64,000 nucleotides of DNA from Escherichia coli (GTDB lineage: Bacteria > Pseudomonadota > Gammaproteobacteria > Enterobacterales > Enterobacteriaceae), in assembly GCF_002854065.1 (NCBI RefSeq), contig NZ_CP024147.1; one strand, written 5' to 3'. The notes under the pieces were generated by a model that ran no database searches, had not been told where the DNA came from, and saw only the letters and a program-made list of their open reading frames with translations. How positions within the stretch are numbered: position 1 is the first letter of the stretch; the number at the start of each line of letters is the position of its first letter. The position numbers and the translations under genes are program-made. This document shows, piece after piece, positions 331 through 63,443 of the stretch.

Positions 331-3233
<2,903 letters not shown>

Positions 3234-10873: not shown

Positions 10874-10903
10874 AAACGGCAGCCCTTGAGCTGCCGTTTT
10901 TTT
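10874..10903 (+). terminator. bamD intrinsic terminator
   Basis: cggcagc-ccttga-gctgccg hairpin followed by T7 run. Confidence 0.65.
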
Positions 10904-11072
10904 ATTCTGTTAGTTGTGAAACTGAAGCGATTTAGTCACTATCGATCTCATCAAATATGGCTCGCTTTGAGATATTCCTCAAGTAAAAAAACACCTCTTC
11001 CTGCGATTTCTCACAAAAAAGATTCGTTGACAAAAAGTGACAAAATTATGAGATTTCCATCACACATTTTGA

Positions 11073-27834: not shown

Positions 27835-27862
27835 AAAAAGGTGCTCAATGAGCACCTTTTTT
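27835..27862. terminator. Bidirectional terminator between bamE and ratB
   Basis: aaaaaaggtgctc-aatg-agcacctttttt: perfect hairpin with A-run and T-run on either side. Confidence 0.7.
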
Positions 27863-27869
27863 CTGTCCG

Positions 27870-57569: not shown

Positions 57570-57894
57570 GGTTCTGCTGCTTGGGTTACTGGTTGGCGCG
57601 GCGAATTATTGCTTCCGCTATTTGCCGCTGCGCCTGCGTGTGGGTAATGCCCGCCCAACCAAACGTGGCGCGGTAGGTATTTTGCTCGACACCATTGGCA
57701 TCGCCTCGATATGCGCTCTGCTGGTTGTCTCTACCGCACCAGAAGTGATGCACGATACACGCCGTTTCGTGCCCACGCTGGTCGGCTTCGCGGTACTGGG
57801 TGCCAGTTTCTATAAAACACGCAGCATTATCATCCCAACACTGCTTAGTGCGCTGGCCTATGGGCTCGCCTGGAAAGTGATGGCGATTATATAA
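57559..57894 (+). CDS. ygaH: AzlD-family exporter small subunit
   Basis: 111-aa membrane ORF; 11-nt overlap with ygaZ. Confidence 0.9.
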
Positions 57895-57984
57895 CCCACA
57901 AGAATCATTTTTCTAAAACAATACATTTACTTTATTTGTCACTGTCGTTACTATATCGGCTGAAATTAATGAGGTCATACCCAA

Positions 57985-58515
57985 ATGGATAGTTCGTTTA
58001 CGCCCATTGAACAAATGCTAAAATTTCGCGCCAGCCGCCACGAAGATTTTCCTTATCAGGAGATCCTTCTGACTCGTCTTTGCATGCACATGCAAAGCAA
58101 GCTGCTGGAGAACCGCAATAAAATGCTGAAGGCTCAGGGGATTAACGAGACGTTGTTTATGGCGTTGATTACGCTGGAGTCTCAGGAAAACCACAGTATT
58201 CAGCCTTCTGAATTAAGTTGTGCTCTTGGATCATCCCGTACCAACGCGACGCGTATTGCCGATGAACTGGAAAAACGCGGTTGGATCGAACGTCGTGAAA
58301 GCGATAACGATCGCCGCTGCCTGCATCTGCAATTAACGGAAAAAGGTCACGAGTTTTTGCGCGAGGTTTTACCACCGCAGCATAACTGCCTGCATCAACT
58401 CTGGTCCGCGCTCAGCACAACAGAAAAAGATCAGCTCGAGCAAATCACCCGCAAATTGCTCTCCCGTCTCGACCAGATGGAACAAGACGGTGTGGTTCTC
58501 GAAGCGATGAGCTAA
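57985..58515 (+). CDS. mprA: MarR-family repressor MprA (EmrR)
   Basis: 176-aa [52 protein letters not shown]... Confidence 0.93.
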
Positions 58516-58572
58516 CGCGTCATCTCGCTCAAAAATCCAGATTTATAAAAGAAAAAATGACTGGCCAGCATC

Positions 58573-58603
58573 GCAACATGCTGGCCTTTTTGGCAAGCAG
58601 GTC
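58573..58603 (+). terminator. Intercistronic hairpin between mprA and emrA (possible attenuator)
   Basis: ggccagcat-cgcaac-atgctggcc followed by tttttgg. Confidence 0.6.
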
Positions 58604-58641
58604 GGCTCAGCCGATGAGTTAAGAAGATCGTGGAGAACAAT

Positions 58642-59814
58642 ATGAGCGCAAATGCGGAGACTCAAACCCCGCAGCAACCGGTAAAGAAGAGCGGCAAACG
58701 TAAGCGTCTGCTCCTCCTTCTCACCTTGCTCTTTATAATTATTGCCGTAGCGATAGGGATTTATTGGTTTTTGGTACTGCGTCATTTCGAAGAAACCGAT
58801 GACGCATACGTGGCAGGGAATCAGATTCAAATTATGTCTCAGGTGTCTGGCAGCGTGACGAAAGTCTGGGCCGATAACACCGATTTTGTAAAAGAAGGCG
58901 ACGTGCTGGTCACTCTCGACCCGACAGATGCTCGCCAGGCGTTTGAAAAAGCCAAAACTGCACTGGCTTCCAGCGTTCGCCAAACCCACCAGCTGATGAT
59001 TAACAGCAAACAGTTGCAGGCGAATATTGAGGTGCAAAAAATCGCCCTCGCGAAAGCACAAAGCGACTACAACCGCCGTGTGCCGCTGGGCAATGCCAAC
59101 CTGATTGGTCGCGAAGAGCTGCAACACGCCCGCGACGCCGTTACCAGTGCCCAGGCGCAACTGGACGTCGCGATTCAACAATACAATGCCAATCAGGCGA
59201 TGATTCTGGGGACTAAACTGGAAGATCAGCCTGCCGTGCAACAGGCTGCCACCGAAGTACGTAACGCCTGGCTGGCGCTGGAGCGTACTCGTATTGTCAG
59301 TCCGATGACCGGTTATGTCTCCCGCCGCGCGGTACAGCCTGGGGCGCAAATTAGCCCAACGACGCCGCTCATGGCGGTCGTTCCAGCCACCAATATGTGG
59401 GTGGATGCCAACTTTAAAGAGACGCAGATTGCCAATATGCGTATCGGTCAGCCGGTCACTATCACCACCGATATTTACGGCGATGATGTGAAATACACCG
59501 GTAAAGTGGTTGGTCTGGATATGGGCACAGGTAGCGCGTTCTCACTGCTTCCGGCGCAAAATGCGACCGGTAACTGGATCAAAGTTGTTCAGCGTCTGCC
59601 TGTGCGTATCGAACTGGACCAGAAACAGCTGGAGCAATACCCGCTGCGTATCGGTTTATCCACGCTGGTGAGCGTCAATACCACTAACCGTGACGGTCAG
59701 GTACTGGCAAATAAAGTACGTTCCACTCCGGTAGCGGTAAGCACCGCGCGTGAAATCAGCCTGGCACCTGTCAATAAACTGATCGACGATATCGTAAAAG
59801 CTAACGCTGGCTAA
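58642..59814 (+). CDS. emrA: Multidrug efflux membrane fusion protein EmrA
   Basis: Start moved to MSANAETQTPQQPVKKSGKRKRLLLLLTLLFIIIAVAIG (390 aa). Confidence 0.93.
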   Translation: MSANAETQTPQQPVKKSGKRKRLLLLLTLLFIIIAVAIGIYWFLVLRHFEETDDAYVAGNQIQIMSQVSGSVTKVWADNTDFVKEGDVLVTLDPTDARQAFEKAKTALASSVRQTHQLMINSKQLQANIEVQKIALAKAQSDYNRRVPLGNANLIGREELQHARDAVTSAQAQLDVAIQQYNANQAMILGTKLEDQPAVQQAATEVRNAWLALERTRIVSPMTGYVSRRAVQPGAQISPTTPLMAVVPATNMWVDANFKETQIANMRIGQPVTITTDIYGDDVKYTGKVVGLDMGTGSAFSLLPAQNATGNWIKVVQRLPVRIELDQKQLEQYPLRIGLSTLVSVNTTNRDGQVLANKVRSTPVAVSTAREISLAPVNKLIDDIVKANAG

Positions 59815-61626: not shown

Positions 61627-62334
61627 ATGAATACCCAACTTAAATACGGGAGAACCTGGCATTATCCTTTCTCCCCCGGCACCACCAGCGATGACCGCAT
61701 TAACGCCGATTACTGGCAGGATTTACAGGCCATCGCGCAACTGGTGCATACAGAAAAACTCGACGGCGAAAATAACTGCCTTAACCGCTACGGTGTGTTT
61801 GCCCGTTCCCATGCCGCGCCTACGCAGTCGGCATGGACCTATAAAATTCGCCAGCGTTGGCAACTGCTGAAAAACGATCTCGGCGACCTGGAGTTGTTTG
61901 GCGAAAATCTCTACGCCGTTCATTCCATTGAATACCGCGCGCTGGAACAGGACTTTTACCTGTTTGCCGTTCGCTGCCAGGATATGTGGCTGAGCTGGGA
62001 AGAGGTGCAGTTTTACGCCGCCCTGTTTGATTTCCCCTGCGTTCCCGAAATCTCCGGCCCGCAGCCGGGGAATGATGAAAAAAGCTGGCAACGTGATTTT
62101 CTGGCACTGACCAATGCGCGCGGCGCGTTCGATCCCTGGGATACACAAACCGGGCAACCCTGTACTCTGGAAGGCATTGTCAGCCGGAATCGTGATGCGT
62201 TTTCCGTCGCTGACTTTTCGCATAACGTCTTCAAGTATGTGCGCAAAAATCATGTCAAAACCACTGTGCACTGGAAACGACACTGGCAACGGGCGCGGAT
62301 GGCCCATGAGTTCGCTTATGGAGAACAGTCATGA
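61627..62334 (+). CDS. Putative ATP-dependent polynucleotide ligase (minimal covalent nucleotidyltransferase)
   Basis: 235-aa ORF with candidate nucleotidyltransferase motifs: [35 protein letters not shown]; ATG start; 4-nt ATGA overlap with the next gene. Confidence 0.7.
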
Positions 62335-63443
62335 TTTGGCAGCTTACCGACGATAAACGCTGGTCGACACTACGCCAGCGTTTCAGTTGGGTTGAGGAGA
62401 TGCATCACACGCCACAAGACCCGGAGCATCATGGTGAAGGTGACGTCGGCGTGCATACCGAAATGGTGCTTAACGCCCTTGTTACTCAGCCAGAATTCCA
62501 GCAACTCCCCGCTCAACAGCAGGAAGTTTTATGGGCGGCGGCGTTATTACATGATGTTGAAAAGCGCAGCACTACCGTGCAGGAAAACGGACGTATTCAG
62601 TCGCCGGGCCATGCTCGTCGGGGCGAACTGACGGCCCGGCTGATTTTGTGGCGCGATATCCCAACGCCGTTCGTGCTGCGCGAGCAAATCGTTGCGCTGG
62701 TGCGTCTGCATGGGTTACCGCTATGGTTACTGGAACGTCCGGAACCGGAGCGTTTGTTGCTCACGGCTGCAATGCGCATCGACACGCGTCTGCTCACTTT
62801 GCTTGCTCGTGCCGATCTGCTTGGTCGCCAAAGCCCGGATCAGCAATCAATGCTGGAACGCATCGATCTGTTCGAGCTGTTTTGCCAGGAGCAACAGTGT
62901 TGGGGAAAAGTGCGCTCGTTCGTGTCTGATTCCGCACGCTGGCATTACCTGACCCATGAGCAAAGTTCTCCTGATTTTGTTCCCTGGGAGGCTGAACCTT
63001 TTGAGGGCATTTTGCTGTGTGGCTTACCGGGTATGGGCAAAGATCGCTATATCAATGAACAGTGCCAGGGAATGGACGTTATCAGCCTTGATGATATGCG
63101 GCGGCGAATCAATGCCAATCCGGACGACAAAACCGCCACCGGGCGTATTGTGCAACAGGCAAAAGAAGAGGCACGCGTTTTTTTACGCCAGAAAAAGCCG
63201 TTCATCTGGAATGCAACGAACTTTACCCGCCAGCTTCGTAGCCAGCTCATCAGCCTGTTTACGGCTTACGGCGCACGAGTAAAAATAGTTTATCTTGAAG
63301 TGCCATGGGCGCAATGGAAGCAGCAAAATGCCAGACGCGAGTATGCAGTTCCTGAAGCGGTCGTGATGCGGATGGCCTCAAGGCTGGAAGTTCCTCAACC
63401 TGATGAAGCACATAGCGTGGAGTATCGGGTGATTGAAAGGTAA
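62331..63443 (+). CDS. Putative HD-domain phosphoesterase fused to a 5-prime-OH polynucleotide-kinase-like P-loop domain
   Basis: 370-aa ORF: N-terminal HD signature ([10 protein letters not shown] ... LLHDVEK ... D), C-terminal P-loop GLPGMGKD followed by ISLDDMRRR and TRQLR, resembling polynucleotide kinase catalytic motifs. Confidence 0.7.

Follow-up and report, generated by a model that had tools for sequence, protein, structure and literature searches.

A terminator hairpin between mprA and emrA in the mprA-emrAB operon of Escherichia coli

Partial terminators within operons, which fix the stoichiometry of the genes, are represented by T1, which is located between rpsU and dnaG, and by the rplL-rpoB attenuator. 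Further examples reportedly include internal terminators in Clostridial ABC-transporter operons (PMC9045158), a hairpin between arsC and arsD in Bacillus (PMC4562236) and sites of internal termination in operons of Methanococcus (PMC10450193). The mprA-emrA intergenic region of Escherichia coli resembles such intra-operon partial terminators in the position of its hairpin between the first and the distal genes, in the probable combination of a short, abundant transcript with a rarer full-length one, and in the presumed excess of the upstream product. It differs from them in that the upstream gene encodes the operon's own autorepressor.

The hairpin was also compared with other classes of terminator. 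It shares with canonical intrinsic terminators of E. coli a GC-rich 9-bp stem, a 6-nt loop and a U-tract directly next to the stem; as in these, the RNA ends where the tract ends, and the hairpin lies well past the stop codon. Nothing essential differs, although the U-tract of mprA is shortish (U5 followed by GG) and co-directional genes follow 50 nt further on. Riboswitch, leader-peptide and protein attenuators likewise place a terminator hairpin upstream of the regulated genes. In contrast to these, no antiterminator, aptamer or conserved leader ORF was found for the mprA hairpin, which comes after a full-length gene instead of a short leader. Bidirectional terminators, reportedly described by Ju et al. 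2019, resemble it in the A-rich tract upstream and the U-tract downstream of the hairpin. However, the U-run of the minus strand begins 5 nt past the stem (AGUCAUUUUUU), and no convergent gene is present. A bidirectional terminator was rejected, because in the minus-strand tail (AGTCATTTTTT) this 5-nt spacer keeps the U-run from being adjacent to the stem.

The intergenic hairpin and the mapped RNA 3′ end

The DNA analyzed here is a stretch of 64 kb (64,000 nucleotides; hereafter, the window), which at about 58.5 kb contains the E. coli ygaZH-mprA-emrAB-luxS region. According to the ORF list and the RefSeq annotation of identical DNA, mprA (emrR) occupies 57985-58515 on the plus strand and encodes a MarR-family repressor of 176 aa; its stop codon is at 58513-58515. 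On the same strand, emrA (58642-59814, with the ATG at 58642-58644) encodes the membrane fusion protein of the EmrAB pump and is followed by emrB. The intergenic region between the two genes (58516-58641) is 126 nt long and equals the whole span for which an earlier note on this DNA had reported a terminator-like hairpin. It matches E. coli K-12 MG1655 base for base; therefore, experiments performed with K-12 apply directly.

Upstream of mprA, a plus-strand block at 57920-57974 is nearly invariant in the aligned Enterobacteriaceae loci. The block is probably the MprA/EmrR operator, a role reportedly described by Xiong et al. 2000, and belongs to the classical autoregulated promoter of mprA, which would supply emrAB via read-through. 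Further downstream, two genes that are not in K-12 were observed between emrB and luxS (61627-63443). The product of the first, of 235 aa, belongs to the RNA-ligase family (PF09414, E = 3.7e-28). The second gene overlaps the first, and its 370-aa product contains a kinase-like domain, AAA_33 (PF13671, E = 1.2e-31). The genes of this island look like an RNA-repair-type pair, and the island is found in 999 of the 5426 complete E. coli genomes.

The hairpin occupies 58563-58586 on the plus strand. Its 5′ arm (GGCCAGCAT, 58563-58571) and 3′ arm (ATGCTGGCC, 58578-58586) form nine perfect Watson-Crick pairs, six of which are G-C, around a 6-nt loop (CGCAAC, 58572-58577). A plus-strand U-tract (T5, 58587-58591) abuts the stem and is followed by GG, and an A-rich tract (ATAAAAGAAAAAA, 58545-58557, plus strand) is located 5 nt upstream of the stem; an A-rich stretch is present in most genera. 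The hairpin and its tail (58563-58591) thus lie inside the intergenic region, with the stem beginning 47 nt past the mprA stop codon and the U-tract ending 50 nt before the emrA ATG.

In a consensus-based terminator scan, the hairpin at 58563 ranked top. Its predicted ΔG is about -16 kcal/mol (-16.7), and it dominates both the minimum-free-energy and the centroid structures. Perfect stems of at least 9 bp with a loop of 3-8 nt and an immediate T5 occur twice in the window when both strands are counted (at 10875 and 58563), and the same pattern was found in none of 30 dinucleotide-preserving shuffles. The 9-bp-stem hairpin and T5 run that the earlier note had read between mprA and emrA are therefore borne out by the sequence at 58563-58591, and exceed chance. 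The z-scores of the fold free energy are modest by themselves (-1.8 and -2.2). Therefore, the case for the hairpin rests on the stem-plus-tail pattern, on conservation and on the published mapping of the 3′ end. The hairpin segment is single-copy per genome and was found in 5417 of the 5426 complete E. coli genomes.

Two further hairpins were observed in the window. One, at 10875-10905, is strongly terminator-like (9-bp stem and T7). The other, at 27839-27863, a candidate for bidirectional termination, is symmetric and has T6 on either strand.

The earlier note had named Term-seq data as a check on the hairpin. Such an end has been published: Supplementary file 1 (sheet LB 0.4) of Adams et al. 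2021 (eLife; PMC7815308) contains a Term-seq 3′ end at 2811376 (+). Conversion of this K-12 coordinate via the K-12 annotation gave window position 58591, and the flanking sequence printed for the entry is window 58541-58601. Thus, in identical K-12 sequence, the 3′ end falls exactly on the last U of the tract. The end is supported by 861 reads, compared with 1e4-1e5 for neighbouring strong ends, is of the class 'orphan', and was curated in one of three growth conditions only (LB, OD 0.4) (PMC7815308). The four supplementary tables of that paper, including the Rho-termination table, hold no other entry near the intergenic region, which is a weak negative on Rho. No mprA entry was found in the SMRT-Cappable-seq supplementary tables.

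Transcript length leads to the same position. In the northern blot of Chen et al. 2025 (PNAS; PMC12704781), mprA is represented mainly by an RNA of about 900 nt (an 888-nt ygaH′-mprA RNA), as against the annotated 3.5-kb mprA-emrAB mRNA, which appears in that paper only as 'previously annotated'. By 5′ RACE and northern blot, the 5′ end of the main RNA was placed inside ygaH codon 49, and the authors name the hairpin a Rho-independent terminator (PMC12704781). Counting 888 nt back from 58591 (58591-888+1) gives 57704 on the plus strand, which is in ygaH codon 49 and is taken here as the approximate start site; the published transcript matches the hairpin to the nucleotide. The mprA 3′ UTR, from the stop codon to the mapped end, is accordingly 76 nt long (58516-58591, plus strand).

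The element thus combines a GC-rich, short-loop stem and an adjoining U-tract with an RNA 3′ end that was mapped in vivo to the last U, as an intrinsic terminator does. We conclude that the hairpin is an experimentally supported intrinsic terminator that is real and functional, and that it was described previously and is not new. As a piece of textbook biology already described by experiment, it gains little from this confirmation.

Conservation across Enterobacteriaceae and natural variants

The comparative evidence on the terminator across about 25 genera is new in this analysis. MprA orthologues from about 25 genera of Enterobacteriaceae provided 80 loci, of which 79 intergenic regions were aligned. 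The mprA-emrA spacing in the aligned loci was 115 to 133 nt. The hairpin was detected at the same place in all 79, with ΔG values from -8.7 to -20.5 kcal/mol and a predicted pairing probability of 1.0 in every sequence. Stem pairing was held in 95.7% of the cells of the alignment.

In the non-Escherichia loci, identity to the window was 0.87-0.89 for the stem arms, 0.27 for the loop and 0.50 for the four-fold degenerate sites of emrA. Compensatory changes in the stem were few: a G-C pair is replaced by A-U in two loci (L075 and L079) and an A-U pair by U-A in one (L074), and the top pair varies. Single changes in the stem yield G-U pairs, which are valid only in plus-strand RNA. The primary sequence of the stem is more conserved than the structure alone needs, and covariation is sparse; both points count against the terminator model.

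The U-rich tail is conserved as well, with a majority fraction of 0.91. Its uninterrupted form, TTTTTGGC (TTTTTGG), was confined to 8 of the 79 loci, namely those of Escherichia and a few Kosakonia-like ones. The tail is interrupted in nearly all other loci, and reads TTTCTGA[CT] in 62 of the 79 (alignment A1, columns 93-100). Judged from these sequences, a U-tract that is short or interrupted everywhere would fit a deliberately leaky terminator. For Escherichia, PMC12704781 reports the gain of ygaZH and of a new start site further upstream, and it may be speculated that the uninterrupted U-tract of this genus is linked to that gain.

Natural variants of the region were observed in four genomes. 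In E. coli STK78-E (NZ_CP162185.1; L081 436-615), the segment ATCCAGATTT...GAGTTAAGA is present as a perfect 90-bp tandem duplication; therefore, two copies of the terminator hairpin, together with the hairpin H2 described below, stand in series before emrA. In E. coli M45, a urinary tract infection isolate (NZ_CP080119.1; L083 1725-2500), IS1B is inserted immediately behind the U-tract of the terminator, and the target duplication is CCTTTTTGG. The transposase of this element is oriented towards emrA, and the insertion may therefore drive emrAB independently of MprA. In the blood isolate E. coli AF57 (NZ_OZ546943.1; L084 1075-2510), IS4 is inserted in the 3′ arm of the hairpin (target duplication CGCAACATGCTG), and the terminator is split. 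Enterobacteriaceae bacterium RIT714 (L019, approximately 3070-3135) carries an insertion of about 60 nt in the mprA 3′ UTR, just upstream of the terminator. This insertion has an inverted repeat of its own (GTTGCAGGC...GCCACTGCAAC) and may be a small mobile repeat.

Hairpin H2 and the leader of emrA

Ten nt beyond the RNA 3′ end, the plus strand carries a second hairpin, H2 (GUCGGC / UCA / GCCGAU, 58601-58615). H2 is paired in 98.3% of the cells of the alignment, and the identity of its arms to the window is 0.97-0.98 in the non-Escherichia loci. Two compensatory changes from U-A to C-G were found, together with several G-U variants that are valid only on plus-strand RNA. H2 is followed by an invariant block of 14 nt (AAGATCGTGGAGAA, 58624-58637, plus strand), which holds the Shine-Dalgarno sequence of emrA (GGAG, 58632-58635) and has an identity of 0.99 in 74 non-Escherichia loci. 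Together, H2 and this block (0.97-0.99) are more conserved than the stem of the terminator (0.87-0.89) or synonymous sites (0.50). Neither motif recurs elsewhere in the 64-kb window.

From their sequences, H2 and the block could serve in translation initiation, in protection of the mRNA 5′ end or in the binding of a trans factor, and it is only in this leader that something new could be hidden. The terminator, H2 and the AAGAUCGUGGAGAA block over the ribosome-binding site might together form a larger conserved emrA leader, in which a trans factor (a protein or an sRNA) controls read-through or the translation of emrA. We regard such a leader as doubtful. If it were true, EmrAB would have a second regulatory layer that is independent of MprA.

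Two other roles for this region were considered and rejected. H2 is not a DNA operator for MprA, as the conserved mprA operator block contains no H2-like palindrome. The hexamer TCGGCT, which H2 shares with the operator block, is variable there (G/A), and the variants of H2 are G-U pairs of plus-strand RNA; both observations also speak against an operator. The second candidate was a long-range anti-Shine-Dalgarno helix between 58536-58544 and 58625-58634, which appears in the minimum-free-energy fold. It is paired in 87.7% of the cells with no convincing compensatory change, and the lone change on both sides comes from one sequence (L079). Sequestration of the Shine-Dalgarno sequence was 0.73, against 0.62 when the upstream sequence was shuffled, and 465 of 1185 shuffles reached at least the observed value.

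Probable partial termination and the expression of emrAB

A canonical Rho-independent terminator very probably closes the mprA unit, and a minority of read-through would then make emrAB at a fixed, lower ratio. RNA polymerase would start at the ygaH-internal site or at the classical mprA promoter and transcribe mprA. The GC-rich 9-bp hairpin would form in the nascent RNA 47 nt beyond the stop codon; at this distance, a terminating ribosome cannot mask it. Helped by the weak hybrid (rU:dA) that the U5 tract forms, the hairpin would then release the RNA at 58591, and the majority of the transcripts would carry the repressor alone. A minority of the polymerases would pass the U-tract, because it is short (five U and then GG, or UUUCUGA in most other genera), and would reach emrA 50 nt further on, giving the mprA-emrAB mRNA. 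The pump would thus be made at a fixed, lower ratio to the repressor, with both under the same MprA-controlled promoter.

The evidence bears unequally on these steps. Direct support exists for the hairpin and its conservation, for the 3′ end mapped in vivo and for the 888-nt RNA as the main isoform. The earlier note had claimed that the hairpin partially terminates transcripts leaving mprA and so uncouples the repressor from the pump. Termination itself was upheld by the 3′ end at 58591 and by the main isoform, which contains mprA only, whereas we infer that it is partial from the earlier-annotated 3.5-kb mprA-emrAB transcript, from the lack of a promoter-like site before emrA and from the short U-tract. 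In a consensus scan of the plus strand from 58025 to 58999, no sigma-70-like promoter was found, although a weak or alternative-sigma promoter close to emrA may exist. It is the promoter ahead of mprA, itself controlled by MprA, on which induction of emrAB reportedly depends (Lomovskaya 1995; Xiong 2000). Taken together, these two points make read-through the likely source of emrAB mRNA. Read-through as the route to emrAB would presumably be constitutive, and its fraction presumably small. Our literature search found nothing specific on emrRAB read-through.

The same 3′ end could also arise from RNA stability instead of termination. Cleavage of the operon mRNA beyond the hairpin, perhaps by RNase E within the A/U-rich sequence that precedes emrA, would be followed by trimming back to the hairpin by 3′ exonucleases. 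Term-seq alone cannot tell termination from processing, the signal at 2811376 is modest in read count and 'orphan' in class, and an A/U-rich sequence (58616-58629) does lie downstream of the hairpin; these points favour processing, and the first two also count against the terminator model. However, an end that coincides with the final U of a tract abutting a GC-rich stem is the signature of intrinsic termination, whereas trimmed ends are usually a few nt 3′ of the stem whether a U-run is present or not. The conservation of the U-rich tail itself also argues against trimming, as does the reading of the hairpin as a terminator by the authors of PMC12704781. We therefore consider an end made by processing to be very unlikely.

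Still less probable is a conditional attenuator, in which the mprA 3′ UTR would respond to some ligand, leader peptide, protein or sRNA and so switch read-through into emrAB. Curation did retain the 3′ end in just one of the three growth conditions, but this difference may merely follow the expression level. The downstream leader, with H2 and the Shine-Dalgarno block, is unusually conserved. The mprA 3′ UTR also contains the sequence prerequisites of a stable short RNA bound by Hfq or ProQ (A-rich tract, hairpin and U-tail), as far as sequence features alone can tell, and its (ARN)-like A-rich tract and U-tail could bind Hfq; no literature linking the mprA 3′ UTR to Hfq was found.

In contrast, no parts of a switch were found. 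The best upstream duplex with the 5′ arm of the hairpin was -9.84 kcal/mol, compared with -9.72 kcal/mol for shuffled sequences (79 species), and the hairpin is paired with a probability of 1.0 in every one of these species. An antiterminator was rejected, as the upstream sequence matches the 5′ arm no better than shuffled sequence does. The sole ORF over the hairpin runs from the ATG at 58557 to the TAA at 58622 (MTGQHRNMLAFLASRSAQPMS). This ORF lacks a Shine-Dalgarno sequence, and outside E. coli its ATG is not kept: most of the other genera have CTG, CCG, CGG or TTG instead. A leader peptide was likewise rejected. No Rfam family reached threshold. In an Rfam scan of 57700-59000 with E up to 10, only isrD matched over the hairpin; at 17 bits (E = 2.4), this match falls short of the gathering score of 37 and is generic resemblance to terminators. 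Thus, the suggestion of the earlier note that the hairpin might be a site of conditional read-through was not sustained by the searches for an antiterminator beyond chance, for a conserved leader ORF or for an Rfam family.

A chance inverted repeat or a mobile REP-like repeat with no role in transcription, which the unremarkable fold z-scores alone would allow, is effectively refuted by the in vivo 3′ end that maps to the hairpin and by conservation over about 25 genera, besides the absence of the hairpin with its tail from all 30 shuffles and its single copy in the genome, for which a REP or other repeat element was rejected.

An intrinsic terminator with minority read-through would account for why MprA comes from an abundant short mRNA and why EmrAB, transcribed from the same promoter, is made in smaller amounts. 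This uncoupling of the repressor from the pump bears on how strongly the EmrAB pump can be induced. Natural mutations at the terminator, such as the duplications and IS insertions of a few isolates, might alter efflux.
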